From an uncultured delta proteobacterium (GTDB lineage: Bacteria > Myxococcota_A > Polyangia > Polyangiales > Polyangiaceae), in contig CAVSWE010000003.1 in NCBI GenBank assembly GCA_963731595.1, forward strand, positions 300,948-345,914: a stretch of DNA of 44,967 bases, read 5' to 3'. Positions 1-29,522 of the stretch are shown one piece after another; the stretch's first letter is position 1; each line of letters starts with the position of its first letter. The translations under genes and the position numbers were made by a program. The notes beneath the pieces are model-generated. The model made no database searches and had not been told where the DNA came from. It saw nothing but the letters and a program-made list of their open reading frames with translations.

Positions 1-115
1 CAAGCGCTTCGACGATATGCGTCTGCGGCGTGATGGGATAGGCGCAGATTACCTGGGGCCGGCAAAGCGCGATCGCCTCTGCAACCGCGCGCGATCCTTC
101 GGTCTGTTTAAGCAT
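1..115 (-). CDS. 2-oxoacid (pyruvate/2-oxoglutarate):ferredoxin oxidoreductase alpha subunit, N-terminal 38 aa only (runs off window)
   Basis: Reverse translation from the ATG at 115..113 gives [38 protein letters not shown], the conserved N-terminus of OFOR alpha subunits (AYPITPQT motif). The start overlaps the stop of the upstream gamma subunit gene. Confidence 0.6.
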
Positions 116-686
116 CGATCGTGTCTTTCGCTTGGGCGGCGAGCTCGAATGCTTCCGTCGCCGCGGCGACGTTCTTCTCCGCTACCGCCGCAGGAAATTT
201 CTGGCGGATGGCCGCGACGACCGAAGCCAGCGCGATCCGCTCAGTAACCGCGGCAAAGCCGCCGAGCAGCGCCGCGTTCGGCACCGGGCGGCCCACGTGC
301 TTGAGCGCAAGCTCGGTGGCCGGGAGCGAGCACAGGCGATAGCGCCCGACGCCCCGCGCGAACGGGCCCAGCCCGAGCTCGTCGAAGCTGCGCGTCGAGT
401 TGATCAGGATATAGCCATGCGGCTGGAGGCCACTGAACACGTCGACCTGATGCAGCAACGTCGGGTCCTGCACGATCAATGCATCGGGCTCCAGGACCGG
501 CTCGCGTAAGCGAATTTCCTTGTCGTCGATGCGGCAGAACGCCATCACGGGCGCGCCCATGCGCTCCGAGCCGAAGCTGGGAAACGCCTGGGCATAACGC
601 CCTTCGAGAAACGCCGCGACGGACAGCATTTCGGCGCCCGATACCACGCCCTGACCACCGCGGCCGTGAATCCGGATCTGGAACAT
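108..686 (-). CDS. 2-oxoacid:ferredoxin oxidoreductase gamma subunit
   Basis: ORF 108..821(-). The conserved part starts at [54 protein letters not shown], the signature of POR/KOR gamma subunits. Start set at internal ATG 686. Confidence 0.75.
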
Positions 687-789
687 GTCTGGTCGCGCCT
701 CGGTGTTCGCCGCAAGCCCTTGCGGCCCATTCATTGGGGAAAATCCTCCTGCCGACCCGGGAATTGTCCCCGTATTGCCGAAACCTATC

Positions 790-942: not shown

Positions 943-1750
943 ATGGAGCATAGCGGCCCGCTCATCGCCGGCGTCGGGCTCACCGACCCTGCCCGGCGCA
1001 GCCATTGGCCGGCGAGGCTGGACCTGGCGCAGAGCGCCTCGGGTCTCCTGCTCGCGCTTTTCATGTGGGCGCATATGGCCTTCGTCTCGTCGATCCTGCT
1101 TGGCAAGGACGTCATGTGGATGGTCACGAAATTCTTTGAAGGCTATTTTCTCTTCGGCCGGTCCTATCCGGGGCTTGTCTCGACCGTGGTCGCGCTGGTC
1201 ATCGCGCTCGTGGTAACGCACGCCATTCTGGCGCTGCGCAAATTCCCGATTAACTACCGTCAGTTCAGCACCTTTCGCGGCCATATGCGGATGCTGCGGC
1301 ACGAGGACACAACGCTTTGGTTCTGGCAGGTTGTCACTGGCTTCGCCCTGTTCTTTCTCGCCTCGGTGCACCTCTACATCATGCTTACCCGGCCCGACCG
1401 TATCGGGCCGTTCGAATCCGCCGACCGGGTGTGGAGCGACCATTTCTGGCCGCTGTATATCGTGCTACTGCTGACCGTCGAGGTGCACGGCGGGGTCGGC
1501 CTGTACCGGCTTGGCCGTAAAATGGGGTTGGTTCGCAGGCGGCGATGCGAACGCGGTGCGGCGTCGGCTCAAGCTCGCCAAATGGGCGCTGACGGCCTTC
1601 TTTCTGGTCCTTGGCGTGGCGACTCTGGCCGCCTATATCAAGATCGGCATCGAGCACCGTGACCACTATGGCGAGCACTACGTTCCCGCGGCGCAGCAAG
1701 CGTCGTCACCCCAACCCGCCGCTGGGGGCGCGGCGGGGAGCCCTCGGTGA
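943..1750 (+). CDS. frdC: quinol:fumarate reductase dihaem cytochrome b membrane subunit (Wolinella type), +1 frameshift at ~1511-1516
   Basis: [11 protein letters not shown]...[14 protein letters not shown]...[54 protein letters not shown]...GLYRL aligns along its length with W. succinogenes FrdC. The C-terminus ..[16 protein letters not shown] continues in the +1 frame (ORF 1511..1750). An extra G in cttGGccg breaks the frame. The frdC stop overlaps the frdA GTG (GTGA). Confidence 0.8.
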
Positions 1751-3765
1751 ACGTGATCTACACCGACGTGCTGGTGATCGGCGGTGGCCTCGCCGGGTTG
1801 CGGATCGGCATCGGTGCCAAACGCCGCGGCCAAGACGTGATCATCCTGTCGCTCGTCCCGCCCAAGCGCTCGCACTCTGCGGCGGCGCAAGGCGGCATGC
1901 AGGCGAGCCTGGGCAACGTCGTCAAGGCGATGGGTGACAACGAGGACGTGCATTTCGAAGACACCGTGCGGGGCAGCGACTGGGGCGCCGATCAGCGCGT
2001 CGTGCGCATGTTCGTCGACACGGCGCCCAAGGCCGTGCGCGAGCTTGCCGCGTGGGGCGTGCCGTGGAGCCGCGTGCAGAAAGGTGACCGGAAGGTGATC
2101 ATCAACGGGCAGAAGGTCACGATCACGGAGCGCGACGAAGCGCATGGACTGGTGATGCAACGCGACTTCGGTGGTACCAAGAAATGGCGCGCCTGCTACG
2201 TCTCCGACGGCACGGGTCACGCCATGCTGTACGCGATGAGCGACCAGGCAATCGCCCACGCGATCAGCGTGCACGAGCGCATGGAGGCCCTGGCGCTGAT
2301 CCACGACGGGTCGCGCTGCTATGGTGCGGTAGTACGCAACCTCGTGACCGGGAAATTGGTCGCGTACGTCGCCAAGGCTACCGCCATTGCGAGCGGCGGC
2401 GCGGGACGCCTCTATCGCGCGACGACCAACGCGGTCATCTGCGAGGGCATCGGCACGGCGCTGGCGTTGGAGACCGGCGTGGCAATGGTAGCCAACATGG
2501 AGGCGATCCAGTTTCACCCGACGGCAATCTTTCCGGCATGCATTCTGGTCACCGAAGGCTGCCGTGGGGACGGTGGATTGCTGCGCGACGCTGCGGGCAA
2601 GCGCTTCATGCCCGACTACGAGCCGGAGAAGAAGGAACTCGCCTCGCGCGACGTCGTATCCCGGCGCATGGAAGAGCACATCCGCAGGGGCGCGGGCGTG
2701 AAGTCACGGTTCGGCGAGCATCTGTGGCTCGACATCACCCTGCTCGGGGCCAAGCACATCGACAGCAACCTGCGCGAAGTGAAGGAGATCTGCCACTATT
2801 TCCTCGGCATCGATCCGATCAAGGATTGGATACCGGTGCGACCGGCACAGCATTACACGATGGGCGGGATCCGGACCGACCACACCGGCGGTAGCCCGAC
2901 GCTCAAAGGACTCTACGCCGCCGGCGAAGCCGCGTGCTGGGACCTGCACGGCTTTAACCGCCTGGGTGGAAACTCGGTCGCGGAAACCGTCGTCGGCGGC
3001 ATGATCGTGGGCGAGTTCATCGCCGATTTCTGTGCTCGTCCCGAGAGCAACCTGCAGTTCTCCACCGGCCTGATCCGCGAATTCCTGGAGCACGAGCAGG
3101 CCAAGCTCGACGCGCTCGCCGGTAACCGGGGCGGGGAAGAAGCCAACGCATTGCGGGTCCGAATGCAGGAGATCATGACGACCAAGGTCGGGATCTTCCG
3201 CACCGGCGGGGAGCTTGCCGCCGCGGTCGAGGAGCTGCAGTCGCTGCTGCGGCGCAGTCAGAACATCGGCCTGCGCTGCACCGCAAGTGGCGCAAATCCG
3301 GAGCTCGTTTCCGCCTACCGGGTCCAGAAGATGCTGCGGCTGGCGCTGTGCGTCGCCTACGGCGCGCTGACTCGGACCGAGAGCCGGGGCGCGCATTTTC
3401 GCCATGACTATCCGCGGCGCGACGACGCCGAATGGCTGAACCGCACGCTAGCAACGTGGAAGAGCGCCGACGACATGCTGCCGACGCTGGCACGCGAATC
3501 GCTTGACGTGATGCAGATGGAGCTGCCGCCGGGGTGGCGCGGATATGGGGCGAAGGACTACGTCGAGCATCCCGACACGGCGCGTCGTACCGCGGAGGTG
3601 GAGGCGATCAGGACCAGGCTCGTCAGTGCCGGCCGCGGGGTCGTACAGGAGGCCCTGATGCCGTACGCTGAGCTCATGCCCGAGCGCTTCCGCGGACCCA
3701 ACGAGCGCATCGATGAGCCGCTGCCACCGTCTCCCGCAGGCCCGCAACGACCGAGCCCGACATGA
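1747..3765 (+). CDS. frdA: fumarate reductase flavoprotein subunit
   Basis: 672-aa ORF with GTG start. It has an N-terminal FAD Rossmann fold ([11 protein letters not shown]), the covalent-FAD His region ([10 protein letters not shown]), and the active-site motifs [11 protein letters not shown] and HYTMGGI typical of FrdA/SdhA. Confidence 0.92.
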
Positions 3766-3822
3766 CCGGAGCCACCGCCATGGCCATCCCCGCCGGGGCC
3801 GCCTGAACGACCGCGGCGCAAG

Positions 3823-4536
3823 GTGCGGATTAGCGTCCTGCGCTACAACCCGCAGGAGCGCGGCAGTGTTCCCCGCATGCAGGCCTACGAACTCGAAGAG
3901 GCCGAGGGAATGACGCTGTTCATCGCGCTCAACGAAATCCGCGAAAAGCAGGACGCATCCCTGCAATTTGACTTCGTCTGCCGCGCCGGGATATGCGGCA
4001 GCTGCGGGATGCTGATCAATGGGCGCCCAGGGCTCGCCTGCCGTACGCTGACAAAGAACCTGGACCCGGAGATCACGCTGGCGCCCCTGCCGGTCTTCGA
4101 ATTGATCGCCGACCTTTCGGTGAACACCGGCAAGTGGATGCGGGCGATGAGCGAACGGCTGCAGACCTGGGTGCACATGCGCCAGAAAGAGGTGGACACT
4201 TCCCGGCTCGAGGAGCGCATGGAGCCGGAGCTGGCGCAGAAAATTTACGAACTTGATCGCTGCATTGAATGCGGGTGCTGCGTCGCCGGTTGTGGCACCG
4301 CGCGCATGCGCGAAGACTTTGTCGGCGCGGTCGGCCTGAACAAGATCGCCCGTTTCCGGCTCGACCCGCGCGACACGCGCACCGACGCAGACTTCTACGA
4401 ACTGGTCGGTGACGACAGCGGTGTATTCGGTTGCATGTCCTTGCTCGCTTGCCACGATGTCTGCCCGAAGGAGTTGCCGCTCGCAACGCAAATCGCCTTC
4501 ATGCGTCGCAAGATGGTGAGCATCGGTTGGAAATAG
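3823..4536 (+). CDS. frdB: fumarate reductase iron-sulfur subunit
   Basis: 237 aa. It carries the 2Fe-2S motif CRAGICGSCGMLINGRPGLAC and the 4Fe/3Fe cluster motifs CIECGCCVAGC and CHDVCP. Confidence 0.9.
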   Translation: MRISVLRYNPQERGSVPRMQAYELEEAEGMTLFIALNEIREKQDASLQFDFVCRAGICGSCGMLINGRPGLACRTLTKNLDPEITLAPLPVFELIADLSVNTGKWMRAMSERLQTWVHMRQKEVDTSRLEERMEPELAQKIYELDRCIECGCCVAGCGTARMREDFVGAVGLNKIARFRLDPRDTRTDADFYELVGDDSGVFGCMSLLACHDVCPKELPLATQIAFMRRKMVSIGWK

Positions 4537-4568: not shown

Positions 4569-5575
4569 ATGAAGGTCGCAACGAAGTTTGCAACACTAAG
4601 TGTCGCACTGGCTAGTTTAGCGATTGCGTTCGGGGCACCCGCACAGCAGCCGATCATCATCAAGTTCAGCCACGTCGTTGCCGTCGACACGCCCAAGGGC
4701 AAGGGCGCGGAGAAATTCAAGCAGCTGGCCGAGGAGCGTACGAAGGGCCGGGTCAAGGTCGAGGTCTACCCGAACAGCACGCTGTACAAGGACGGCGAGG
4801 AAATCGACGCCCTGCAGCTGGGCTCGGTGCAGATGCTCGCCCCCTCGGTGGCCAAGTTCGGGCCGATGGGGGTGCGCGAATTCGAAGTCTTCGACCTGCC
4901 GTACATCTTTGACGACTTCGGCGAGCTGCACAAGGTCACCGAAGGCGCGGTTGGGAAACTGCTGTTCCAGAAACTCGATTCGAAGGGCATCGTCGGTCTT
5001 GCCTATTGGGACAACGGCTTCAAGGATTTCAGTGCCAACAAGCCGCTTAGGCTTCCCGGCGACGTCAGGGGTCTGAAGATGCGCATCCAGTCGTCGAAGG
5101 TGCTCGATGCCGAAATTCGTGCCCTCGGGGGGATTCCGCAGGTGATGGCCTTCTCCGAGGTGTATCAGGCGCTGCAGACCGGCGTGGTCGACGGCACCGA
5201 GAATCCACCGTCGAATTTCTATACCCAGAAGATGAACGAAGTGCAGAAGTATCTGACCCTGAGCGATCACGGCGTCATCGAATACGCGGTAATCGCGAAC
5301 AAGAAATTCTGGGATGGCTTGCCGGCGGATATCCGCACCATCCTCGAAGGCGCGATGAAGGATGCGACCAAATACGCCAACGACATCGCCAAGGAGGAGA
5401 ACGACAAGGCGCTCGCGGCGGTCAAGGCGACCGGGAAGACTGAAATCCTGACGCTCAGCCCCGATGCGAAGGCGGCCTGGAAAAAGGCGCTCTGCCGGTG
5501 CATCGAGAGATGGAAAGCCGGGTCGGCAAGGACATCATCCAGGAGGTCTACAAGGAAACCGGGTTCAAGCCCTGA
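4569..5575 (+). CDS. dctP: TRAP transporter substrate-binding protein DctP (C4-dicarboxylate), one -1 frameshift in an A5 run at ~5481
   Basis: MKVATKFATLSVALASLAIAFGAPAQQPIIIKFSHVVAVDTPKGKG... is a typical DctP with signal peptide. After ..AAWKK the conserved C-terminus (LPVHREMESRVGKDIIQEVYKETGFKP*) reads in the -1 frame and ends at TGA 5573..5575. The as-given ORF instead runs on to 5711. Confidence 0.8.
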
Positions 5576-5624
5576 CCGAGCGTTGCAGCGCCTGATGCGC
5601 GAGCCGGGTTCGACGCAAACCGAC

Positions 5625-5651
5625 GCCGCTGCGGCCCGCAGCGGCTTTTTT
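5625..5651 (+). terminator. rho-independent terminator (or attenuator) between dctP and dctQM
   Basis: gccgctgcgg-ccc-gcagcggc is a perfect 10-bp GC stem, followed by tttttt. It sits 50 nt after the reconstructed dctP stop. Confidence 0.5.
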
Positions 5652-5694
5652 GTGTGCAGCAGAACGGCGGTCGACCAACCGGGGACGCTTGCGC

Positions 5695-6306
5695 ATGCTG
5701 AAGCTCCTTGACCACCTCGAAGAGTGGCTCATCGCGCTGCTCATGGGCGGCGCGACGTTGATCATCTTCGTGGCCGTCGTTCACCGCTATGCCGCGGGCC
5801 TGCCCATCCCCGTGGTGCAGGACTGGCTGCTTGCGCTCAACCTGTCGTGGGCGCAGGAAGCATGCATCTACATGTTCGTATGGATGGCCAAGTTCGGTGC
5901 CGCTTACGGCGTGCGCACCGGCATCCACGTCGGCGTGGACGTGGTGATCAATCACCTGCCCGACGGCGTGCGCCGCAAGTTCATTCTTTTCGGACTGGGC
6001 GCCGGCGCGCTGTTCACCGGCGTGGTGGCCTCGTTCGGCGCCAGTTTCGTGTGGCAGCTCGCCCACACCGACCAGACCTCGCCCGACATGGAGCTGCCGA
6101 TGTGGCTGGTCTATCTGGCCATTCCCTGCGGCTCGGGGCTGATGTCCTTCCGCTTCCTCCAGGTGGCGTGGAACTTCTGGCGCACGGGCGAGCTGCCGCA
6201 TCACGACCCGACCGACGTGGCGGGCGTCGAAAAAATTGCCGACCAGGACGCCCACGTCGGCCTGGCGCAAGACAATCTTTTTCCCGCGCCGCCTGGCAAG
6301 CGCTGA
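5695..6306 (+). CDS. dctQ: TRAP transporter small permease DctQ
   Basis: MLKLLDHLEEWLIALLMGGATLIIFVAVVHRY... has four predicted TM helices, typical DctQ size and position. Confidence 0.8.
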   Translation: MLKLLDHLEEWLIALLMGGATLIIFVAVVHRYAAGLPIPVVQDWLLALNLSWAQEACIYMFVWMAKFGAAYGVRTGIHVGVDVVINHLPDGVRRKFILFGLGAGALFTGVVASFGASFVWQLAHTDQTSPDMELPMWLVYLAIPCGSGLMSFRFLQVAWNFWRTGELPHHDPTDVAGVEKIADQDAHVGLAQDNLFPAPPGKR

Positions 6307-6309
6307 GCC

Positions 6310-7605
6310 ATGACCTCCGCCATCATCTTCGGGCTGTTGATCGCGCTCATGCTCACCGGCATGCCCATCTCGATCGCGCTCGGGCTCACGGTCCTGACTT
6401 TCGTGTTCACCATGACCCAGGTGCCGATCGAATCGGTGGCCCTGAAGCTGTTCACCGGCATCGAGAAGTTCGAGATCATGGCCATCCCCTTCTTCATCCT
6501 CGCCGGCACTTTCCTCACCCATGGCGGGGTGGCGCGGCGGATGATCAATTTCGCCGCCTCCATGGTCGGCCATTGGCATGGAGGGCTGGCGCTCGCAGGC
6601 ATCATCGCCTGCGCGATGTTCGCGCTTGTATGCGGTTCGAGCGTCGCCACGGTGGTGGCCATCGGCTCCATCGTGCTGCCGGAGATGGTCAAGCGCGGCA
6701 TCCCCATGGACTTCGGCGCCGCCGTGATCACCGTCGCCGGTTCGCTCGGCATCCTGATGCTGCCGTCGATCCCCAAGGTCATCTACGCGATCGCCACCAA
6801 CACCTCGATCGGCGCGTTGTTTGTCGCCGGCCTGCTGCCGGGGATCCTGCTGACCACGATGCTCTGCCTGGTCACCTGGTATATCGCCAAGAAGCGCAAT
6901 TACCCGCGGCTGCCGCGCGAAAGCTGGGGCGCGCGCTTCAAGGCGTTCCGAGAGTCCGTCTGGGGCCTGATGCTCGTGGTCATCATCATCGGCGGCATCT
7001 ACTCGGGGATCTTCACCGCCACCGAGGCGGCCGCGATGGCCGCGGTGTACGCGTTCTTCGTGTCGGTGTTCGTGTACAAGGCCATGCCGCTCAAGGATTT
7101 GCGCAAGGTGCTGCTGACCTCGGCCAACATGAGCGCAATGCTGCTCTACATCATCACCAACGCGGCACTGTTCTCGTTCATCCTCACCAACGAGAACATT
7201 CCGCATGCCCTGGCGGACTGGATTATTGCCAAGGATCTGGGCTGGGTGGGGTTCCTGTTGCTGGCCAACGTGCTGTTGCTCCTGGCCGGCAATTTCATGG
7301 ACCCGTCCTCGGTCATTCTCATCATGGCGCCGATTCTCTACCCCGCGGCGATGACGCTCGGGATCAATCCGGTGCATCTCGGCATCCTGATCGACGTCAA
7401 CATGGAGGTCGGGCTCTGCCATCCCCCGGTGGGGCTCAATCTGTACGTGGCCTCGGGCATTTCGCGCCTCGGCATCACGCAGCTGACCAAGGCGCTGGTT
7501 CCCTGGCTCGTCACCATGCTGATCTTCCTGGTCATCGTCACCTATTGGCCGGCGCTGTCGACCTGGCTGCCGCAGAAGATGGGTATGATGGGGCCGTTGC
7601 CCTAG
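6310..7605 (+). CDS. dctM: TRAP transporter large permease DctM
   Basis: 431-aa polytopic membrane protein with DctM-family sequence throughout (MTSAIIFGLLIALMLTGMPISIALG...). It starts 4 nt after the dctQ stop. Confidence 0.9.
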   Translation: MTSAIIFGLLIALMLTGMPISIALGLTVLTFVFTMTQVPIESVALKLFTGIEKFEIMAIPFFILAGTFLTHGGVARRMINFAASMVGHWHGGLALAGIIACAMFALVCGSSVATVVAIGSIVLPEMVKRGIPMDFGAAVITVAGSLGILMLPSIPKVIYAIATNTSIGALFVAGLLPGILLTTMLCLVTWYIAKKRNYPRLPRESWGARFKAFRESVWGLMLVVIIIGGIYSGIFTATEAAAMAAVYAFFVSVFVYKAMPLKDLRKVLLTSANMSAMLLYIITNAALFSFILTNENIPHALADWIIAKDLGWVGFLLLANVLLLLAGNFMDPSSVILIMAPILYPAAMTLGINPVHLGILIDVNMEVGLCHPPVGLNLYVASGISRLGITQLTKALVPWLVTMLIFLVIVTYWPALSTWLPQKMGMMGPLP

Positions 7606-7647: not shown

Positions 7648-7953
7648 ATGTTACTCCGACCCACTTCGCAGATAAACTTCAGTTCTTTTGGCCCAACCAG
7701 TATGCGGCTCGCAAAGTTCGTCAAGGTACGCGAGGAGAAATTTGGCGGCGTCCTCTTCGAGACGCGCTCGGAGAAGGTTTTTACGCTCAATCCAACGGCC
7801 ATGGCGGTCGTGCGCGAGATCGAAGCAGGCCATGACGAGCGCGAGATCGCCATGCGACTGAAGGCGCGCTTTAACGACAGTACCGACGTGATCGAGCGCG
7901 AAGTCGTCGCGTTCATCGCGGAGCTGCGGCAGAGAAGCCTTGTCGAGGGTTGA
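7648..7953 (+). CDS. PqqD/MftB-family peptide chaperone (RiPP recognition element protein)
   Basis: (M)RLAKFVKVREEKFGGVLFETRSEKVFTLNPTAMAVVREIEAGHDEREIAMRLKARFNDSTDVIEREVVAFIAELRQRSLVEG matches the PqqD-family pattern (FG..L...., LN.ta..vw, C-terminal fi..L). An alternative start is ATG 7702. Confidence 0.65.
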   Translation: MLLRPTSQINFSSFGPTSMRLAKFVKVREEKFGGVLFETRSEKVFTLNPTAMAVVREIEAGHDEREIAMRLKARFNDSTDVIEREVVAFIAELRQRSLVEG

Positions 7954-7957
7954 GCGC

Positions 7958-9112
7958 GTGACAACATTGGCAACGGATAACGGACCCGACTCCGCGATCC
8001 CAGCGACGACCTCGACCTACGCCTGCTCGGAGGACCTCGCCGCGCCACTCTACGTGGCCTGGCAGATCACCAACGAATGCAACCTCGCCTGCCTGCACTG
8101 TATCGAGGAGAGCGGGCCGGGCAAGGCGTTCGCAGATGAGCTCGACGCGGCGCAGATATTCTCGGTGCTCGACCAGTTGCTGGACCACCAAGTCCCCTAC
8201 ATGTCCTTCTCGGGCGGCGAGCCTATGCTGCATCCGCAGTTCTTCGAGATGGTGGAGCACGTCTGCGCGCGTGGCGCCCAGCTCAAGATCGAGACCAACG
8301 GTCATTATCTGTCCGCCGAAAACTGTGCGCGGATGAAGGAACTCGGCGTCAAGGCGGTCCAGGTGAGCCTCGACGGCGCGTCCGCCAAGACGTTCGAGCG
8401 TATGCGCGTGCGCGGGAACTTCGATCGCACGCTCGATGGCCTGCGCAACCTTCGCGCGGCAGGCGTGCCCGTGGAGATTAACTTCTCGCCCGCCTGCTTC
8501 AACGTCCATGAGATCGGCGCGGTCGTCGACCTCGCATACAAGCTGGGCGCATACAGCTTCTACACCGGGACGCACGATGTACACCGGCAACGCCGTCAAG
8601 GCTTGGCGCCACCTGGAAGTTTCGGAGCCGAGCAATACGAGGCGTTCTTCGCTGTTCTGCGGCAAAAAGCCGAGGAGTACCACGGCCGCATGCGCGTCTA
8701 CTTTCACGAGGCGGGGTTGCTCGAGGAGCTGCGTTATCGCCTGCAGCACCCGGCTGCGCTGCTGATCGTGCTCCCGAACGGCCTGGTCAAGCTCATCAAC
8801 GCCTTGCCCTTCGTGTGCGGCGATTTTCGCCGCCAGACGCTGCGGGAAATCTGGGCGAATTTCCGCCGCGCCTGGCACGACCCGCGCGTGGCACAGTTCG
8901 TCGACGAGCTTGGCACCGACCCGGGCGGACACGGACGCTGCACCAATGGGTCTATCTTTGACTGCGCTGCCCGTGCGATCCGGCCGTTCGGCGCGCACGG
9001 CGCTGCACCGGCTGCTCGCCGTTTGCCGCCTGGTGCGCTACCGGTTTTTCCTATATGCCGGGCTGCTGCCGTATCTGCTCGGCGCGGCCTGGGCCTACGC
9101 TCGCGCTGGTAG
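7958..9112 (+). CDS. radical SAM enzyme, MftC/PqqE-like (SPASM-family-like) maturase, paralog 1 of 3. The 3' end is uncertain and there is an internal compensating frameshift pair at ~8570/8623
   Basis: ..PLYVAWQITNECNLACLHCIEESGPGKAFADEL..FSGGEPMLHPQFFEMV..QLKIETNGHYL..VQVSLDGASAKTFERMRVRGNFDRTLDGLRNLRAAGVPVEINF aligns block by block with mycofactocin maturase MftC (CLTWELTYRCNLACVHCLSSSGKRDPGEL...GGGEPTVRPDF...VQISLDGATAEV...). The CxxxCxxC motif follows the W-x-I-T motif. Its tail overlaps the start of the prenyltransferase gene. Confidence 0.72.
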   Translation: MTTLATDNGPDSAIPATTSTYACSEDLAAPLYVAWQITNECNLACLHCIEESGPGKAFADELDAAQIFSVLDQLLDHQVPYMSFSGGEPMLHPQFFEMVEHVCARGAQLKIETNGHYLSAENCARMKELGVKAVQVSLDGASAKTFERMRVRGNFDRTLDGLRNLRAAGVPVEINFSPACFNVHEIGAVVDLAYKLGAYSFYTGTHDVHRQRRQGLAPPGSFGAEQYEAFFAVLRQKAEEYHGRMRVYFHEAGLLEELRYRLQHPAALLIVLPNGLVKLINALPFVCGDFRRQTLREIWANFRRAWHDPRVAQFVDELGTDPGGHGRCTNGSIFDCAARAIRPFGAHGAAPAARRLPPGALPVFPICRAAAVSARRGLGLRSRW

Positions 9113-9897
9113 CCTTCGACGCGCCGATTTTCTGGAGCGGCCTCGCGGGTGTAGTGCTCGCCGTAATCGGCGTCGAGGCATTCAACGAGTATTTCGATTC
9201 ACGCATGGGCACCGACCGCGTCTTCAACCCGGCCGAACTCCCGCCGATGTCTGACGCAGTGCTCTGGTTGGGCATTGCGGCCTTCGCCGGCGCGCTGGCG
9301 GTCGGCATCTACCTGACCGTGCGTGGCGGCTGGCCGATCCTGGCCTTCGCACTCCTGGGTGGAACGGCGGCGATCTTTTATGTGGCGCCCCCGATACGCT
9401 GGGCCTATCGTGGCCTGGGCGAACTGGTCATCGCCCTGTCCTACGGGCCCTGGATGGTACTGGGCAGCCTCTACCTGCAGAGCCAGGCGCTGTCGTGGGG
9501 GGCGCTCTTCGCGTCGCTCGTACCGGGATGCCTGATCATGGCGCTCGCGGTCGTCAACGCGATTCCCGATTACCACCAGGATCGCTTGGTCGGCAAGCGC
9601 AATCTCGTCGTGCGGCTCGGCCGCCGGCGCGCGGTTTGGCTGTATCTTGCCCTTGCGGCAGGCGGACTGCTGGTGGTGCCGGTCGGCGTAGCGAGCGGCA
9701 TCTCCCCGCCACCTGCCTGGCGGCCTTACTGGCGGTGCCGCTGCTCGTGGCCAGCGGCCGCTGCGCGCTGCGGCACTTATGAAACACCGCGCGCCTTTGT
9801 TCCCGCCGTGCGCAGCATCGTCGGCTGCTATCTGGTCGCCGTCGTGCTGTTCACCGCCGGCGTCCTGTGCAGTGGCGTAGCGTCCTTGCGCCCATGA
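8946..9897 (+). CDS. UbiA-family polyprenyltransferase, MenA-like (1,4-dihydroxy-2-naphthoate polyprenyltransferase-like). As given it carries ~3 frameshifts (~9095, ~9715, ~9780)
   Basis: Reconstructed MGLSLTAL..RLVRYRFFLYAGLLPYLLGAAWAYA / LALVAFDAPIFWSGLAGVVLAVIGVEAFNEYFDSRMGTDRV...NAIPDYHQDRLVGKRNLVVRLG has both UbiA Asp-rich motifs (N-x3-D-x5-D and D-x3-D). The NAIPDYHQDRLVGKRNLVVRLG segment matches E. coli MenA NNLRDINSDRENGKNTLVVRLG. The start overlaps the paralog-1 radical-SAM gene; the stop overlaps the paralog-2 start (ATGA at 9894..9897). Confidence 0.7.
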
Positions 9898-10861
9898 ACT
9901 GGATCGATCGCCTGCGCGCGCCGCTGTTCGTGTCCTGGCAGATCACGCGCGACTGCGACCTGTGCTGCCTGCATTGCTGCACCGAGTCGGCGCCGGGGAA
10001 GCGGTTGCCGGACGAACTCGACGCTGCCGAAGCGACGTGGCTGGCCGAGGAGATCGTCCGCAACGCAGTGCCCTACGTGATGCTTTGCGGCGGCGAGCCT
10101 TTGGTCGTGCCGCACTTTTTCGCCCTTGCCGAAGTCGCTGGGGCGGGCAGGCGTCCAGCTGAAGATCGAGACGAACGGGCAGCGCTTCGATGCCAAACTC
10201 GCCGCCCGGCTCGCCCGCCTGCCCGTCCGGTCGGTACAGATTAGCCTGGACGGCGACACACAGGAGGTCTACGAGCGCCAGCGGCCCGGGCGGCTTCGCT
10301 CGCCAAAGCCCATGCGGCCTGCCGCGCCGCTCGTGCGGCCGGGCTGCCGCTCGAAGTCACCTTTGCGCCGACCCGGCTCAACATTCACCAGGCCGGGCCG
10401 GTCATCGAGCGGGCGCGGGCGCTTGGTGCCTTTCGCTTCAATACCGGGCGGCTCATGCGCATCGGCACCGCCGCGCGGCTGTGGGAGAAGCTCGAGCCTT
10501 GCCGAGGAGCAATACCGGGAATTCCGCGCCTGTTGAACCGCATGGCCCGGCGCCTAGAGGGGCAACTGGAGATTTGCCATGCTCCGTTTGACCTCGCGGA
10601 AGGGCTGCGCGGCAGCCTCCAGAACGCCGCCGGCAACCCTGCTCGTGCTGCCCAACGGCTGGGTCAAGGTTGCCGCGGCACTGCCGCAGATCTGCGCTGA
10701 CTTGCGCCGCCATAGCCTTGACGGAGGCCTGGGAGGCCTACCGCAACGCGTGGCGGAGTGATACAGTGCTGGCGGAAGTACGGCGCGCGGTCGCCGATCC
10801 ATCGCGTCACGCGCGAGGCCAACAGTTGGCAGTTGTTGCCCGTCGCCCCGGTGTGACCTGA
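9894..10861 (+). CDS. radical SAM enzyme, MftC/PqqE-like, paralog 2 of 3. It is broken into at least 4 ORF pieces by about five 1-nt indels, from sequencing error or real pseudogenisation
   Basis: The pieces MNWIDRLRAPLFVSWQITRDCDLCCLHCCTESAPGKRLPDELDAAE..CGGEPLVVPHFFALAE / VQLKIETNGQRFD..VQISLDGDTQEVYERQRPG / ..AARAAGLPLEVTFAPTRLNIHQAGPVIERARALGAFRFNTGRLMRIGTAARLWEKLEP / LLVLPNGWVKVAAALPQICADLRRHSL / EAWEAYRNAWRSD.. are collinear with paralog 1 across four reading frames. Confidence 0.6.
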
Positions 10862-10872
10862 CGGAGGGAAAA

Positions 10873-11025
10873 TGAGCGAGTTGAACCTGACGATCGAAGC
10901 CGCCAAGACCGGCGACGAACGCAAGACCGATACGGTGCAGCCGGCGCAAAAGCCGCATGGGAAACGCCCAAGCTCGAGGACGTGTCCGAGCAGGTGATGG
11001 CCCAACCGTATATCCGCTTCACCTG
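10873..11025 (+). CDS. candidate RiPP precursor peptide (51 aa, reconstructed across one frameshift in an A4 run at ~10949-10952); PqqA-like C-terminal core
   Basis: A strong SD (ggaggg-aaa-ATG) precedes it. Frame 1 reads MSELNLTIEAAKTGDERKTDTVQPAQK. After a 1-nt indel in caaaag the frame continues as AAWETPKLEDVSEQVMAQPYIRFT* to the TGA at 11023. The W-x-x-P-x-L-x-D-V...E...Y pattern recalls PqqA (WKKPAFIDLRLGLEVTLY). It sits immediately upstream (20 nt) of paralog 3. Confidence 0.4.
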
Positions 11026-11045
11026 AGATACCCAGAACTTTCGCA

Positions 11046-11982
11046 ATGCCGGGGCGTTCGGTAGAAGAGTACCGAGCACCCCTTTTTCTTGCCTGGCAGC
11101 TGACCAACCGCTGCGCTGCGCGCTGCATCACCTGCTGCGAGGAATCCGGTCCCGATAAGGCATGGGGCGATGAGCTTTCCCGTGACGAGGCGATCGCGCT
11201 TGCACGGCGCATCGCGGCGTTCGGCATCGCCTACGTTGCCTTCGGCGGCGGCGAGCCGCTAGGTGTACCGCATTGCTGGGATCTGCTCGAGCTGCTCGCC
11301 GCGGCCGGCATCGCTCTTAAGATCGAGACCGACGGCAGTCACATCGACGCTTCCGCGGCCGATCGGCTCTCGGCGCTCGGCGTCGAGTGCATCCAAATTT
11401 CGGTCGACGGAGCGACAGCGGCGACGCATGAGCGCGTGCGTCCGGGATCGAGCTTCGCCGCGGCGGTCGCCGCCATCGAGCGACTGGTCGCGCGCGGTCG
11501 TGCACCGCAATTGGTGTTCGTTCCCACCCGCTTCAACTGCACGAGATCGTCGCCGCGTTCGATCTGGCGGCAACGCTCGGCTGCGGCGCATTCGTCACCG
11601 GCCCGCTGATGCGCATCGGCCGCGCCGCGGGCGCACTGGCAGCGCATCGCCTGCAGCAGACGAGGAGTGGCGCGCCGCGGTTACCGCGTTGAGAGAACGC
11701 ACCGCGTCGATGCGGCCCCGGAATGGCCCTTGTCGATCTATCCTTGGGACATTCGTTGCGGAGATGGAAACGCGGCTCGAGCGACCGCAGGCGATGCTGC
11801 TGGTCGTGCCCAACGGCAAGGTCAAGCTGCTCAATGCGCTCCCGTTCGCCGCCGCCGACCTGCGCCGCGATTCGCTCGAGGACGCGTGGCGGGCCTATCG
11901 CGACGCCTGGCATGCGCCGGAGGTGCGCGAATTCATCACCCGCTGCCGCAGCCAATCCAGCGCTGCTGATGCACGCCAATGA
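11046..11982 (+). CDS. radical SAM enzyme, MftC/PqqE-like, paralog 3 of 3 (at least 2-3 frameshifts as given)
   Basis: MPGRSVEEYRAPLFLAWQLTNRCAARCITCCEESGPDKAWGDEL..AFGGGEPLGVPHCWDLLELLAAAGIALKIETDGSHID..IQISVDGATAATHERVRPGSSFAAAVAAIERLVARGRAPQLVFVPTRFN, then in other frames ..AFVTGPLMRIGRAAGAL.. and ..ERPQAMLLVVPNGKVKLLNALPFAAADLRRDSLEDAWRAYRDAWHAPEVREFITRCRSQSSAADARQ*. This is collinear with paralogs 1 and 2. Confidence 0.6.
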
Positions 11983-12112
11983 GACATGGCCGATGGTTAG
12001 GAACGACGGTTGACCCCCGCGCCAGAAACCCCAATACTTAAGCGGCTGTGATTGAATACTTACCCGTCGTAGCGAAGCTTTTGAGGGCCCGGGAGCCCGC
12101 TGATCGGTTGCG

Positions 12113-12442
12113 ATGCATCGACTGACATTGGGACTACTCGCCGCCTGCACCGCTGGCGCAATCGCGGTTGCGGCCCAGCCAGCGCCGGACAGCTCCCGCG
12201 GCGAGCTCCTCTATTCCACCCATTGCATCGGTTGCCATAGCGCGCAGGTGCATTGGCGCGAAAAGAGGCTGGCGACAGACTGGGCAAGTCTCAGGATGCA
12301 AGTATTTCGATGGCAGATGAACACGGGCCTCGCCTGGAGCGACGAGGACATCGTCGCTGTCACCCGCTATCTGAACGATCTCTACTACCGTTTTCCGACG
12401 CCGGACAGGCCGGTGGCATTTCAGGGGTCGTCGGGTAACTGA
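12113..12442 (+). CDS. secreted mono-haem c-type cytochrome (109 aa)
   Basis: It has a signal peptide (MHRLTLGLLAACTAGAIAVAAQPAP) and a single CxxCH haem-binding motif (HCIGCHS). Same strand as the radical-SAM cassette, 130 nt downstream of it. Confidence 0.65.
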   Translation: MHRLTLGLLAACTAGAIAVAAQPAPDSSRGELLYSTHCIGCHSAQVHWREKRLATDWASLRMQVFRWQMNTGLAWSDEDIVAVTRYLNDLYYRFPTPDRPVAFQGSSGN

Positions 12443-12585
12443 TCCCGGGCTGCCGCGTCAAATCGATGTGAGTCGCTCGTTCTTTGCCGTCGACAAATGC
12501 TCTAGCTCGGGAGGCGCGCGCATACGACGGTCGAGTCCATCTCCCAGCGAGTGATCACTCGTGCCCCCAACGCGAGTGTACTGTT

Positions 12586-17075: not shown

Positions 17076-18478
17076 TCAGATGATGCGCGAGTTGCGCGCC
17101 GCCCACGCTGCTCACGCAGGTAACGGTCGAATACCATCGCCACCGTGCGAACTAAGAGCCGACCGCGCGGCGTCACGTGGATCGCGTCCGATGCGATTTC
17201 GACCAACCCGTCGTCGGCCAGCGGTGCAAGTGACTTGAGCTCGGTTGCGAAGTAATCGCGGAACGCGATGGCGTACGCGCTCTCGACGCGCTCGAACGAG
17301 ACGGTGAATTGGCACATGAACGCGTGGATCACATCGCGCCGCAAAACGGTCGTCGGCAGAAAGCCGCCAGCCGCGAAAACATGGTAGCGCATCGTCGTCG
17401 AGCCGGGCGTAGTAATCATCCAGAGTACGCAGATTCTGGCTGTAGGACGCACCGACCTTGCCGATTGCGGAAATACCGAATGCCAAAAGATCGCAATCAG
17501 CGTGCGTCGAGTAGCCTTGAAAATTGCGGTGCAGCTTGCCTCACGCTGTGCGACAGCAAGCGCGTCGTCGGGCCGCGCGAAATGATCCATGCCGATGTAG
17601 ACGTAACCGGCGCCGGTCAACTTTTCGATTGCAAGCTCAAGAAGGGCTAACTTGGCCTCCGCCGACGGCAACTCCGCTTCGCTGATGCGCCGCTGCGGCT
17701 TAAACAGATGTGGCACGTGCGCATAGCTGTATAGCGCAAGTCTATCCGGCGCACCGTCGAGCACCTTGTCCAACGTGACGGCCGAAGCCGGCCAAAGTCT
17801 GCCGCGGGAGACCATAGATTAAGTCGATGTTTAAGGAGCGGAAGCCATTCGCACGTGCGGCGTCGAGTACAAATGCGAGTCTCGGCTTCCGATTGAATGC
17901 GGTTCACCGCCTGTTGTACGGCTGGGTCGAAGTCCTGTACGCCGATGCTCATCCGGTTGAAGCCAAGCTCCGAGAGAAGCTTAACCGTCCCGGCGACGCC
18001 AAATGGCGGGGGTCGACTTCGATCGAGCATTCGGCGTCAGGCACAAACGCAAAGCTGTCGTGTAGGACACGCCATAGCAACTGTCATTTCCTCGGCCGAC
18101 AGGAACGTCGGCGTGCCGCCGCCCCAGTGCAACTGTGTGACGGGGGACGCCGAATCGACGAGCCCCGACACGATTGCGACCTCCCTGCCGAGATAGTGGA
18201 TATATTTTGCGGAGCGGCCATGGTCCCGGGTCGTGACCTTGTTGCACGCGCAGTAGTAGCAGATGGTGTTGCAGAACGGCACGTGCACGTACAGCGACAG
18301 CGGCTGCGGCGCGCCGGCTCTGGCGGTTGACAAGCGCGTTAGCGAGATGGTCGGCGGTGAATGCTTCCGTAAAGCGATCTGCCGTCGGATAGGAGGTGTA
18401 GCGCGGCCCAAAGCCATCGTACTTGCGGATCAGATCCGAGTCGAACGGGAGGCCTGTAGTCGGCGTGCAGTGAACCAT
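17076..18478 (-). CDS. hemN: oxygen-independent coproporphyrinogen III oxidase (radical SAM), at least 4 frameshifts as given
   Basis: The pieces [40 protein letters not shown] / [36 protein letters not shown] / [22 protein letters not shown] / [67 protein letters not shown] / [24 protein letters not shown] are collinear with E. coli HemN across several frames. Confidence 0.7.
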
Positions 18479-18706
18479 GTTGGCATCGTGCCAGCCGACC
18501 ATTGCTTTGAACTTGAGCTAGATCAAGCCGGCTGCAGACTCGTTCAGAATCGTGGACACGTGCGCACGTTGCCTCGGCCCATCGCCTATTCGACATCCAT
18601 GTCAGACTGACCGGCCGGGGGGGGCGATTTCTGGGTAGTCCGCACGCCACCACGTCGAGCGACGTAAAGCCACACGGTCGAGGCAAAGTGTGCAGAGAGC
18701 TAAGCA

Positions 18707-23866: not shown

Positions 23867-24490
23867 CTACGCGAGGTTGTCGCCGGCAAAGCCCCAGTTG
23901 ATCAGTTTGTCGAGCACGGCATTCACGTAGTCCGCGCGACGGTTCTGATAATCCAGGTAGTAGGCGTGTTCCCATACGTCGATAGCCAACAGCCGCTTCA
24001 CGCCCTTGGTCAGGGGCGTCTCTGCATTGCCAGTCTTGACCACTTTCAGCTTGCCTGCTTCCTGCACGAGCCATGCCCAGCCGCTGCCGAATTCGCTCGT
24101 CGCCGCCATCGCCAGGTCCCTCTTGCACGCATCTAGATTGCCGAATGAAGCCTCGATCTTTTGCTTCAGTGCCGCCGGAGGCTCACCGCCGCCCTTCGGT
24201 CGCAAGCTACGCCAATAGAAGGTGTGGTTCCACGTCTGCGCTGCATTGTTGAAGATCGCAACCTTGTCGGCTTTGCCGGTTGTCTCGGCGATGAGTTTCT
24301 CCAACGAGAGGCTGGCGAGTTCGGTCCCTGCTAGAAGCTTGTTTAGGGTATCGACGTACCCTTTGTGGTGCTTGCCATAGTGGAGCCCTATCGTCCTACC
24401 GGAAATTACGGGATCCATCGCGTTTTCCGCGTAAGGCAGGGGCGGTAGAACATGCAAAGTTGTTTTTTCGATCACGTCAATGTCGCTCAT
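23867..24490 (-). CDS. sodB: Fe/Mn superoxide dismutase
   Basis: ..[73 protein letters not shown] carries all SOD metal-ligand motifs. Start at ATG 24490 with an AAGGAAG SD. Confidence 0.9.
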
Positions 24491-24856
24491 TTGATCTTCC
24501 TTTCCAATAATGTTCATCCGATGTTCGCAGACTATGAATCGACGCACGGGAACCAGCTGTGCACTTTCAAATTACTCAAGTAGGACCGCCCGCGACCATT
24601 ACTCCCAAGTACCACATTCGCTTTGCGGTCGATCTTGGCACGGTCTGCTGCACGCAGGTCCCCACCGCGAAACTGCAGTGCGGCGTGAGCGGCGGCGGAA
24701 ATGCGCTCCGAGGCGTAACCCGCTGCAGGCGAGTTCCCGGGGGCGGACACGTCGTCGCGCCAGGCGAGATGCCCGCCCCTCCTGATTCCCAACTTCATCA
24801 TTAAATAAAGGTTCGCATCCGTTTGCGAAAGTGACAATAAAACCGTAGTGCGCGTC

Positions 24857-27668: not shown

Positions 27669-28454
27669 CTACTTGGCGACGTACGGCAGTAAACGATCGA
27701 ACTCTTTCTTGACCACCTGGTAACACTCGCAAGACCGCTTCTCCAGGCCAGGGCGATCAAGCACGGTGATCCTGCCGCGCTGGTAACGAATCAACCCGGC
27801 TTCCTGCAGCTTCCCCGCGGCCTCGGTAACCCCTTCGCGACGGACGCCAAGCATGTTCGCGATCAACTCCTGAGTCATCGAAAGTTCGTTCGTCGCCAAA
27901 CGATCCAGGCTAAGCAGCAACCAGCGGCACAATTGCTGGTCGACTGAATGGTGCCGATTGCATACCGCGGTCTGCGCCATCTGCGTAATTAGCCCCTGGG
28001 TGTAGCGCAGCAACAGATGCATCATTGGGCCGAAACGCGCGAACTCGTCTTTCAGCAACTGAGCCTTCAAACGGACGCCATAGCCTGCGCTTTGGACAAC
28101 CGCATGACTGGGGGTCGTGTCCCCGCCCATGAAGAGGGATATACCGAGCACACCTTCGTTCCCGACGACAGCGATTTCCGCCGACGCGCCATCCTCCATG
28201 ACGTAAAGCAAGGAAACGATGGCTGTTGTGGGGAAATAGACGTACCGCAGCCGGGCGCCTGGTTCGTAGAGGACCTCACCCAACCCCATCGACACTGTTT
28301 CCAGGTGAGGTTTTAGACGGACGTAATCGCCTGCAGGCAACGCATCCAAAAGATGGTTCTGATGACCGTTTTCGCGCGCGGGCGCAGCCAAATGCAACCT
28401 GCCCTTCAAGGGTGTGTTCGACGCCTTTCGGACGCGTCGGCTAGGACCCGCCAT
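27669..28454 (-). CDS. Crp/Fnr-family transcriptional regulator (paralog A)
   Basis: It has a cNMP-binding-like domain plus a C-terminal HTH (..ELSMTQELIANMLGVRREGVTEAAGKLQEAGLI..). It is 45% similar in pattern to the regulator at 29523. Confidence 0.8.
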   Translation of the reverse strand: MAGPSRRVRKASNTPLKGRLHLAAPARENGHQNHLLDALPAGDYVRLKPHLETVSMGLGEVLYEPGARLRYVYFPTTAIVSLLYVMEDGASAEIAVVGNEGVLGISLFMGGDTTPSHAVVQSAGYGVRLKAQLLKDEFARFGPMMHLLLRYTQGLITQMAQTAVCNRHHSVDQQLCRWLLLSLDRLATNELSMTQELIANMLGVRREGVTEAAGKLQEAGLIRYQRGRITVLDRPGLEKRSCECYQVVKKEFDRLLPYVAK

Positions 28455-29156: not shown

Positions 29157-29522
29157 TGGCGAGCATCGTTGCGGGGCCCGGCGCCTAAGCGACGGGCTTA
29201 GTCTTACTCTCTAAGCAGCTCCGATATTGAATGCGTGCGCTAGCGTACAGACGCAACTGGGTATCGCGCCTATCTTTCGCATAAGAGGGGAAGGGCATCT
29301 TTCTCGCTAAGGGGCCGCTATTTCGATTCGCTTGACACTGAGGGTCATTGAGCTACAAGAAGTGCACTCTTCGTGCTTTAGCCTTTGAAGGGCCGATGAA
29401 AATCTCGCTCGCTGTACTTCGTAACGGTAGCACGGGAGACCGCGTGTCGCGGCTGGGATTCTCGTCCCGGCCGCATTTTCGTCCGTTCGTGCGCCCACGG
29501 TTTGCGACGAGAGGCCAAACCA

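Follow-up and report, generated by a model that had tools for sequence, protein, structure and literature searches.

A gene cassette of a conserved peptide, PqqD, radical-SAM enzymes and a UbiA prenyltransferase, and its possible role in anaerobic electron transport

In a 44,967-nt stretch of DNA from an uncultured delta proteobacterium of the family Polyangiaceae (GenBank assembly GCA_963731595.1, contig CAVSWE010000003.1), hereafter called the window, we describe a cassette of six genes on the plus strand (7702-12013), which runs from a PqqD-family gene to the third of three radical S-adenosylmethionine (radical-SAM, rSAM) genes and encodes in between a UbiA-superfamily polyprenyltransferase and a short precursor-like peptide. 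On balance we favour, with reserve, the reading that the cassette is a pathway for a polyprenylated peptide-derived redox carrier, which would serve the quinone sites of anaerobic respiratory enzymes. We prefer it because the core of peptide, PqqD, rSAM enzyme and UbiA enzyme couples to a polyprenyl-diphosphate synthase among enzymes with quinone sites. A preliminary description of the window had already raised the idea of a prenylated, peptide-derived membrane electron carrier, and this idea gains support from a minimal form of the cassette that includes a polyprenyl synthase, from the placement of that form in nqr operons, and from the respiratory modules that lie near most of the proteobacterial loci.

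The six-gene cassette and its peptide

Genes were called from the listing of open reading frames (ORFs), from Pfam and NCBIfam scans (NCBIfam release of June 2026) and from tblastn against intact relatives, and all the genes of the preliminary description were found on the plus strand in the content and order described. The first of them encodes a PqqD-family peptide chaperone of 83 aa, that is, a recognition element (RRE) for peptides that are made on the ribosome and modified after translation (RiPPs), at 7702-7953 (PF05402, E 4e-13 in the window copy). Its start had been placed at 7648, which is merely the beginning of the longest ORF; as all homologues begin at the ATG at 7702, this is probably the true start. 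Then follow rSAM1, a radical-SAM enzyme of about 333 aa from a GTG at 7958 to about 8961 (PF04055; 92% identity to protein P0001); the UbiA-superfamily polyprenyltransferase of about 310 aa at 8946-9897 (PF01040), which is MenA/UBIAD1-like and not MenA proper; and rSAM2 (9894 to about 10856), a paralogue of about 318 aa that is likewise a radical-SAM enzyme (PF04055, and tblastn to the intact rSAM2 of the relative L002). The precursor-like peptide of 51 aa occupies 10872-11026, its start lying one nucleotide before the 10873 given previously; it has a variable N-terminal half and the C-terminus WETPKLEDVSEQVMAQPYIRFT, and in the window a GGAGG stands 6 nt upstream of its ATG. The last gene, at 11046-12013, encodes rSAM3, a further paralogous radical-SAM enzyme of about 320 aa (PF04055, and tblastn to the L002 rSAM3). 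The tight or overlapping junctions that had been noted are seen as well in the intact relative L003, with a gap of 3 nt between PqqD and rSAM1, an overlap of 16 nt between rSAM1 and UbiA, an ATGA overlap between UbiA and rSAM2, and gaps of 14 nt from rSAM2 to the peptide and of 20 nt from the peptide to rSAM3. A scan for promoters and terminators, whose matches were near the chance level, gave no convincing terminator within the cassette, and Rfam and tRNA scans of the window gave no matches.

The order PqqD-rSAM1-UbiA-rSAM2-peptide-rSAM3 is found in all of the 68 loci long enough to judge, which come from different species. Moreover, the small ORF, whose conservation the preliminary description had made decisive for its idea, is kept in every homologous locus. 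Because the six genes stay collinear in 68 of 68 loci and the small ORF is kept with an invariant C-terminus, the conservation of the cassette is far beyond chance. Relatives of rSAM1 number thousands, the best 120 of which show 71-92% identity and are named just 'radical SAM'. In a scan of one genome per species 227 encoded relatives were found; the best 80 belong mostly to Burkholderiales-type Betaproteobacteria, including Casimicrobiaceae (89% identity), Usitatibacter and the complete genome GR16-43, while a few belong to Steroidobacteraceae or other Gammaproteobacteria and a few to Acetobacteraceae. The system is both abundant and compact: it is seen in some 227 species genomes, its peptide clusters exceed 1,200, and the cassette needs no more than four to six genes. 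As one or more carriers are complete genomes with a strain name (GR16-43), the question is open to direct experiment.

Among the loci compared the length of the peptide is 49-53 aa and its N-terminal half is variable, while the C-terminal part follows the consensus W-E-T-P-K/R-L/M-E-D-V-S-E-Q-V-M-A-Q-P-Y-I-R-F-T. The protein database holds 1294 clusters of it, every one annotated 'hypothetical'; the last 17 residues, EDVSEQVMAQPYIRFT, are identical in 118 of 120 clusters, and in the remaining two a single residue is changed (V to I in one, Q to E in the other). When 1.84 billion representatives were searched with a profile, 95 members came out, of which the divergent ones have S-G-K, S-G-R or S-Q-R in place of S-E-Q and keep [VIL]-M-A-Q-P-Y-I-R-F-T; MAQPYIRFT is retained in 84 of the 95, and the other tails vary or look truncated. 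Over more than 200 loci these last nine residues are essentially invariant. The peptide belongs to no Pfam or NCBIfam family and has no match to the Pfam PqqA model at E<=1. The rare variant tail MAQPFIRFT occurs at loci L144, L089, L180 and L199 and in proteins P0452-P0454; the rSAM of L144 is annotated to a Chloroflexota metagenome-assembled genome (MEK7280785.1).

An invariant core behind a variable leader marks a cofactor precursor, as in PqqA or MftA, and not an antibiotic RiPP. This bears on one alternative, namely that the cassette makes an ordinary secondary-metabolite RiPP, an antibiotic or signal, with a prenyl group. The general architecture of precursor, RRE and rSAM is indeed that of such a pathway. 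Nevertheless the core is invariant across phyla and from GC 0.30 to 0.69, the precursor is present in a single copy, genes for transporter, immunity and protease do not recur, and the cassette is systematically embedded in respiratory operons, which makes this alternative very improbable.

The copy in the window is itself interrupted by frameshifts. Compared with the near-identical loci L001 and L002, it has 30 insertions or deletions (indels) within 8.5-12.0 kb, while its flanks have 0-1 per kb, and 13 further indels lie in a hemN-like gene at 17.0-18.7 kb. Frameshifts fall near 8565, 8627-8631 and 8925 in rSAM1, near 8976, 8986, 9113, 9701, 9771 and 9868 in UbiA, and at several places each in rSAM2 and rSAM3; a 1-nt deletion near 10957 splits the peptide ORF into two frames, and frdC upstream has a single frameshift near 1508. 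The window PqqD is 100% identical to that of L002. Such a concentration of about 30 indels in 3.5 kb, with 13 more in the hemN-like gene and few in the flanks, is what a decaying pseudogene cluster might leave, in which case the system would be real elsewhere and dead here. However, of the cassette substitutions relative to the intact L002, 86 are synonymous and 38 are not, and codon position 3 holds 87 of the 124 (70%). Since substitutions are mostly synonymous and mostly at this position, the frames of the cassette are, as judged from the aligned copies, under purifying selection. The indel to substitution ratio, about 1:4 in the cassette and about 1:1 in the hemN-like gene, is too high for natural decay. 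Furthermore the cassette is intact in L002, a Logan short-read assembly, and in L001, a sister long-read assembly, the same genes are broken at different places. Given the purifying selection on the frames, the intact L002 and the differing breaks of L001, the window indels are most likely consensus or assembly errors, and we consider decay improbable. The hemN-like gene encodes an oxygen-independent coproporphyrinogen oxidase (17081-18502, minus strand; 474 aa in L001; about 13 indels), and in the first 19 kb indels cluster nowhere but in this gene and in the cassette, both consisting of GC-rich radical-SAM genes.

Respiratory neighbourhoods in Proteobacteria and in sediment anaerobes

The flanking ORFs of 81 proteobacterial loci were clustered and representatives annotated. 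Of the proteobacterial loci, 57 span 12 kb or more, and in 45 of these 57 one or more quinone-reactive modules lie no farther than 8 kb from the cassette. The most frequent neighbours are tetrahaem quinol dehydrogenases of the NapC/NirT/CymA type (29 loci), MtrA-like decahaem cytochromes (22 loci), frdA of the quinol:fumarate reductase (QFR) type (within 8 kb in 19 of the 81 loci) and MtrB/PioB porins (16 loci), followed by FDH-N-type cytochrome b (9), DsrMK-like proteins (5), NiFe-hydrogenase with an Isp-like subunit (4) and NrfHA (3); recurrent neighbours also include Crp/Fnr regulators and hemerythrins. In L060-L062 a NapC/NirT tetrahaem quinol dehydrogenase gene lies within the cassette between rSAM2 and the peptide (10778-11416 in L060), and genes for an MtrA-like cytochrome, an MtrB/PioB porin and a monohaem cytochrome c stand directly upstream of pqqD. 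No further family recurs with the cassette in these 81 loci or in 124 loci of the minimal form treated below.

In the window the neighbouring respiratory genes are frdCAB (943-4536, plus strand), which encode a Wolinella-type QFR with a dihaem cytochrome b subunit: frdC at 943-1750, frdA at 1747-3765 and frdB at about 3781-4536. The window FrdC matches subunit C of the W. succinogenes QFR (2bs2_C) with E 1e-78, and the W. succinogenes enzyme uses low-potential menaquinol. Between frd and the cassette lies dctPQM (4569-7605, plus strand), a TRAP C4-dicarboxylate transporter that is present only in some relatives; both operons are context and not core. Accordingly, the link to a fumarate-respiration block drawn in the preliminary description holds as one instance of a general link to anaerobic, quinol-dependent respiration, while adjacency to frdCAB itself is limited to roughly a quarter to a third of the loci. 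The monohaem cytochrome c of 109 aa at 12113-12442 (plus strand), which has weak Pfam cytochrome c matches and had been counted as a member of the cassette, proved to be a lineage-specific neighbour: it is found only in L001, L002 and L005, plus a match of 42% identity in L063, and is rejected as a cassette part.

Two further features of the proteobacterial neighbourhoods deserve attention. Lipid-binding SRPBCC (Polyketide_cyc) proteins of the Coq10/RatA-like kind are adjacent in 13 loci (for example L066, 3451-3909), and one is also present in the Rhodopila locus L084 (13031-13522); a role as chaperone for a lipophilic product would fit them. FNR/Crp boxes (TTGAT-N4-ATCAA with at most 2 mismatches), searched in the 250 nt upstream of pqqD, are present at 13 of 80 loci (among them L012, L015, L023, L028, L033, L035, L063 and L077) against 2.05 +/- 1.4 in shuffled sequence; being present in 13 of 80 loci though enriched, the box was rejected as a defining feature.

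Several side observations concern the surroundings. A strong GC-rich hairpin with a T-run stands at 5625-5645 (plus strand), directly after dctP and before dctQM, and may be an intra-operon attenuator of the TRAP genes. Genes for 2-oxoacid:ferredoxin oxidoreductase (POR/OGOR gamma, alpha and beta) are divergent upstream of frdCAB in the window (108-734, minus strand) and in L003, L004, L008, L012 and others, and malic enzyme and fumarase genes are nearby in relatives; these neighbours suggest a reductive C4-dicarboxylate branch around the cassette. Over 20000-44967 of the window the GC content drops from about 0.65 to 0.53-0.60. This part holds transposase fragments (DUF772 at 36286-36576, IS110-type at 43829-44458), Crp-family regulators (27669-28454 and 29502-30161), an Fe/Mn superoxide dismutase (23867-24547), a patatin-like lipase and a Sel1-repeat protein, and it may be an island or a mosaic region.

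A minimal form of the cassette was found through the context of the divergent peptides together with a metagenome scan for the pattern S-G-[KR]-[VI]-M-A-Q-P-[YF]-I-R-F-T. It is present in more than 120 sediment and groundwater contigs with GC of 0.30-0.69 (median 0.44), one of them attributable to Chloroflexota. The order peptide-PqqD-single rSAM-UbiA is seen in 29 of the 35 loci with enough downstream sequence. The single rSAM shares with rSAM1 about 40% identity and the Cys pattern, with a single Cys in the motif 'PF[IV]CGD' in 50 such rSAMs; as these rSAMs have rSAM1 as their best match, rSAM1 is their orthologue. In 13 loci the UbiA gene is overlapped by, and translationally coupled to, a long-chain polyprenyl-diphosphate synthase gene, the best matches of which are of the heptaprenyl, solanesyl and octaprenyl types.

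An NQR-type operon lies upstream of the minimal form: in L212 (4002-12892) nqrABCDEF, peptide, PqqD, rSAM, UbiA and polyprenyl synthase follow each other on one strand, and in L211 (9450-13114) the four-gene cassette is inserted between nqrE and nqrF. In L086 and L087 the cassette stands beside NrfD and a molybdopterin oxidoreductase, with a polyprenyl synthase upstream. The NqrA-like subunit of the L211 and L212 operons carries RnfC-like 4Fe-4S motifs, and from its sequence the complex looks like an intermediate between NQR and RNF. The two forms of the cassette differ also in the peptide. Where the proteobacterial form with three rSAMs almost always reads S-E-Q (positions -12/-11 from the C-terminus), the one-rSAM loci have S-G-K or S-G-R, where the scan itself required the Gly; L086 and L087 have S-E-K with one rSAM. 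The extra rSAM paralogues might act on the Glu/Gln pair of S-E-Q.

The enzymes and the proposed pathway

Gene content, conservation, catalytic motifs and genomic association can be read directly from the loci. The PqqD protein scores 50 bits against PF05402 (cut-off 23.4; E 2e-13 for the intact L002 copy), and stays below the PQQ-specific model TIGR03859 (36 bits against 46) and below MftB (25 against 33). In fact no cassette protein reaches any curated NCBIfam cut-off, and no NCBIfam or Pfam model is specific for any cassette component; annotation pipelines name the proteins 'radical SAM', 'prenyltransferase' or 'MenA' (JGI), or 'hypothetical'.

Each of the three rSAMs matches PF04055 and has the CX3CX2C and GGE motifs, which places it in the radical-SAM superfamily. 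The scores against family models are far lower than required: 109-124 bits for MftC TIGR03962 against 265 (rSAM2 124, rSAM3 109, minimal-form rSAM 120), 55-84 for PqqE TIGR02109 against 381, 84-125 for AhbD against 500, and 72-119 for NirJ, NirJ1 and NirJ2 against 500-650. The conserved cysteines outside the cluster motif are C286 in rSAM1, C228 and C267 in rSAM2, and C203 and C299 in rSAM3; there is no SPASM/twitch cysteine set and no PF13186 match. An assignment to the SPASM/twitch subfamily is rejected, as the cysteine set of the auxiliary clusters is absent. The earlier label 'MftC/PqqE-like' is thus correct at the level of the superfamily and fails for family membership, both by score and by these cysteines. 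The preliminary description had also accepted that its idea would fall if profile models placed the rSAMs in a characterised family; none does, AhbD, NirJ, MftC and PqqE all being far below cut-off. By sequence and fold, the nearest solved structures of rSAM1 are SkfB (E 1e-26), PqqE and then BlsE.

A haem d1 or alternative-haem identity calls for separate mention, since AhbD and NirJ are top matches of rSAM1; at no more than a quarter of the cut-off it is rejected. The corresponding explanation of the whole cassette would be tetrapyrrole or haem tailoring, with AhbD/NirJ-like rSAMs and a haem O synthase-like prenyltransferase working for the neighbouring cytochromes, and the many cytochromes nearby would agree with it. 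Against it stand the scores of 84-125 bits for cut-offs of 500-650, and a UbiA protein that matches MenA and UBIAD1, with no haem O synthase model among its 13-15 listed matches. Besides, no role would be left for the PqqD chaperone and the invariant peptide, and the NQR and QFR partners are not c-type cytochromes. Of all the explanations considered this appears to us the most improbable.

The UbiA protein (PF01040, 83.5 bits) belongs to the UbiA superfamily by fold and by its two Asp-rich motifs. These motifs, NEYFDSRMGTD and NAIPDYHQDRLVGKRNL, align to both Asp-rich motifs of human UBIAD1, which is the best sequence match. The predicted model (pLDDT 77) is of an all-helical membrane type with 14 DSSP helices, and its best fold match is again UBIAD1 (TM 0.70/0.78); weaker matches are to chlorophyll-synthase, GGGP- and generic prenyltransferase models. 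With 105 bits against 264 for NF004751 and 71.5 against 102 for TIGR00751 it does not qualify as a MenA equivalog, and the minimal-form UbiA, with 64 bits against 102, does not either. One minimal-form locus, L113, offers a useful contrast: its second UbiA, which with the polyprenyl synthase gene that follows it occupies 10563-12482 as reoriented, about 6.5 kb downstream of the cassette UbiA, scores 127 bits against the same cut-off of 102 and lies beside genes read as Hdr/Mvh-like. As cassette-type UbiAs have 64-72 bits while the second UbiA of L113 passes the MenA cut-off, the cassette UbiA is, by these scores, a distinct subfamily and not MenA; the 'MenA-like' of the preliminary description applies to the superfamily and does not extend to MenA itself. 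The L113 organism may make both menaquinone and the cassette product, as far as its genes tell.

Combining an rSAM, a UbiA enzyme and a polyprenyl synthase is the gene logic of menaquinone biosynthesis, and JGI pipelines label the UbiA gene MenA. One could therefore think of a small-molecule quinone pathway from chorismate-type precursors, comparable to MqnE and MqnC in the futalosine route, in which PqqD and the peptide would be regulatory or scaffolding. We find this quite improbable: a PqqD domain serves as a chaperone that binds peptides, nothing in the system is better conserved than the peptide, and the nearest relatives of the rSAMs are peptide maturases. No Mqn or Men model is among the best 25 of the 53-81 NCBIfam matches of the rSAMs, none of those 25 reaches its cut-off, and no mqn or men genes recur as neighbours.

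For the favoured reading, a polyprenylated peptide-derived carrier, the following course can be proposed. The 51-aa peptide would be the substrate, its conserved W-x-x-P-x-L-x-D-V segment being held by the stand-alone PqqD. The rSAMs would work through 5'-deoxyadenosyl radicals and, by hydrogen abstraction, form C-C or similar bonds near the aromatic residue of MAQPYIRFT; rSAM1 would act universally, and in Proteobacteria rSAM2 and rSAM3 would act as well, presumably adding modifications. The modified head group might be released by housekeeping peptidases or radical scission, or might remain bound to the peptide. The MenA/UBIAD1-like UbiA would then add a long polyprenyl chain, in many genomes probably from the polyprenyl-diphosphate synthase encoded directly downstream. 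The lipid-soluble product would carry electrons between NQR, FDH-N or hydrogenase on the one side and fumarate reductase, NrfH, NapC/CymA-Mtr or NrfD-type enzymes on the other, and the whole route would be independent of oxygen. Every chemical step here, like the physiological role, is what we infer from the genes.

Several points weigh against this proposal. Phe stands in place of Tyr in 3 divergent representatives and in 3 more scan loci, one of them from Chloroflexota, and therefore the phenol oxygen is not universally required, which also bears on the putative Trp/Tyr head group of the preliminary description. Among the 81 proteobacterial and 124 minimal-form loci the cassette has no conserved companion gene for a peptidase, hydroxylase, methyltransferase or decarboxylase; without a conserved tailoring enzyme, a derivation of the two oxygens of a quinone from Tyr is left unexplained, especially with one rSAM, and a single rSAM seems to be little chemistry for making a quinone. 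The MenA-type UbiA of L113 implies that the product is not in every carrier a mere substitute for absent menaquinone. Besides, the acceptors of UbiA enzymes are not confined to quinones but include haem, chlorophyllide and glycerol phosphate, among others. Finally, the predicted model of rSAM1 has a pLDDT of 61 and an unreliable C-terminal domain, and the core fold match alone was used.

Some of these points lead to the main rival, a membrane-anchored prenylated peptide as a bound cofactor, compared with which the other rivals are less likely. The product would be a lipidated RiPP: the rSAMs would cross-link the core, for example by cyclophane-type aromatic-to-C-beta bonds, and the UbiA would anchor the peptide, which would be a bound cofactor, an assembly factor or a regulator of quinone-reactive complexes. 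It would agree with the lack of a conserved protease, with the tolerated change from Tyr to Phe, with a length of about 51 aa that is kept despite the variable N-terminal sequence, and with the insertion of the cassette into an nqr operon in the manner of a gene for a subunit or cofactor. On the other hand, the motifs and fold of the UbiA are closest to naphthoquinol prenyltransferases, and so many unrelated quinone-site partners (QFR, NrfH, NapC, NQR, FDH-N) fit a shared pool carrier better. We also know of no UbiA-family enzyme that prenylates a peptide. We judge the lipidated peptide unlikely, and keep to the polyprenylated carrier.

If so, the consequences would be considerable. To our knowledge all respiratory quinones, whether ubiquinone, menaquinone, plastoquinone, rhodoquinone or others, have head groups that derive from chorismate-derived small molecules, and PQQ (pyrroloquinoline quinone) and mycofactocin, both soluble, are the only peptide-derived redox cofactors. 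The cassette might then represent a third biosynthetic origin of lipoquinone-type carriers, in which the MAQPYIRFT peptide would be converted by radical-SAM chemistry and MenA-like prenylation, free of O2, to a low-potential carrier for NQR, fumarate reductase, NrfH, NapC/CymA-Mtr and NrfD-type enzymes in diverse anaerobes and in facultative soil Proteobacteria; we put this wider claim forward tentatively, its chance being in our eyes somewhat short of even. With it, bioenergetic cofactors would gain a new class and RiPP machinery a new use, and a UbiA-family enzyme would for the first time be found in a RiPP-type pathway. Betaproteobacteria are, as far as we know, generally regarded as having ubiquinone only. 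Such a carrier could explain how soil and wastewater Betaproteobacteria run a Wolinella-type fumarate reductase, NrfH/NapC/CymA and Mtr, which are expected to need a low-potential quinol, and it would likewise account for the quinone with which the unusual NQR-like complexes of sediment anaerobes work.

Comparison with known systems

One of the closest known systems is the PQQ pathway. Both have a short peptide made on the ribosome, in which a Tyr near the C-terminus is conserved, and a stand-alone PqqD-family chaperone; their rSAMs belong to one broad clade (PqqE ranks among the top matches by sequence and by fold), and the conservation pattern of the precursor is of the cofactor type in both. 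Presumably PqqA also shares the layout of a W-x-x-P leader and a Tyr four from the end, a likeness that we take as a lead only. The PqqA motif is Glu-X-X-X-Tyr (PMC2294125), whereas the cassette peptide has the core V-M-A-Q-P-Y with Met at Y-4 and no Glu-X-X-X-Tyr. The cassette is without PqqB, PqqC and PqqF genes, the pqqB and pqqC families not being found in the annotated neighbourhoods of L001, L003, L084, L211 and L212; its rSAMs are without SPASM cysteines, and it adds a membrane prenyltransferase and often a polyprenyl synthase.

Mycofactocin is likewise a peptide-derived redox cofactor made by an RRE and an rSAM, and for each of the three intact rSAMs the MftC model ranks first or within the top three of NCBIfam. 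However, the cassette Tyr is fifth from the C-terminus (...PYIRFT), while MftA ends in Val-Tyr; MftD, MftE and MftF are missing, and the cassette rSAMs have no SPASM clusters. The partners differ as well, being membrane quinone-site enzymes for the cassette and soluble nicotinoprotein dehydrogenases for mycofactocin. Genes for FMN-dehydrogenase, creatininase-like protein and glycosyltransferase do not recur in the 81 and 124 loci, so that the absence of mftD/E/F and of pqqB/C claimed at the outset is confirmed by the annotated neighbourhoods and the counts of recurrent families. Membership in either pathway is rejected, since motif, equivalog scores and accessory genes all fail.

With menaquinone prenylation the cassette shares a UbiA nearest to the MenA models and UBIAD1 with both Asp-rich motifs kept, the pairing with a long-chain polyprenyl synthase, and the link to menaquinol-type respiratory enzymes. 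It departs from it in a UbiA that is under every MenA cut-off and in having no adjacent men or mqn genes; mqnA, mqnB, mqnD and menB-F do not recur near the 81 and 124 loci. Compared with the menaquinone routes, its rSAMs are of the peptide-maturase type and not MqnC or MqnE, and a peptide and an RRE are present.

The rSAM maturases of RiPPs (SkfB and those of sactipeptides and cyclophanes or 'triceptides'), together with the uncharacterised PqqD and rSAM cassettes of Haft (SCM, GeoRSP), resemble the cassette in combining a precursor, a PqqD and multiple paralogous rSAMs. Unlike the cassette, they carry SPASM or twitch clusters and have variable cores, none of them has a UbiA prenyltransferase or sits in respiratory operons, and their models are far below cut-off. 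No description of the cassette was found in the literature searched, the peptide motif included, which left most subscription journals outside its coverage; within that literature and the curated models, the preliminary claim that no described system combines a PqqD/MftC-type module with a MenA-like prenyltransferase is upheld. Nor does any model or paper there assign the neighbourhood to a pathway, which the preliminary description had named as a further ground for giving up its idea. To sum up, the union of RiPP machinery with a UbiA prenyltransferase and a polyprenyl synthase in respiratory operons sets the cassette, on the evidence available, apart from every known system.

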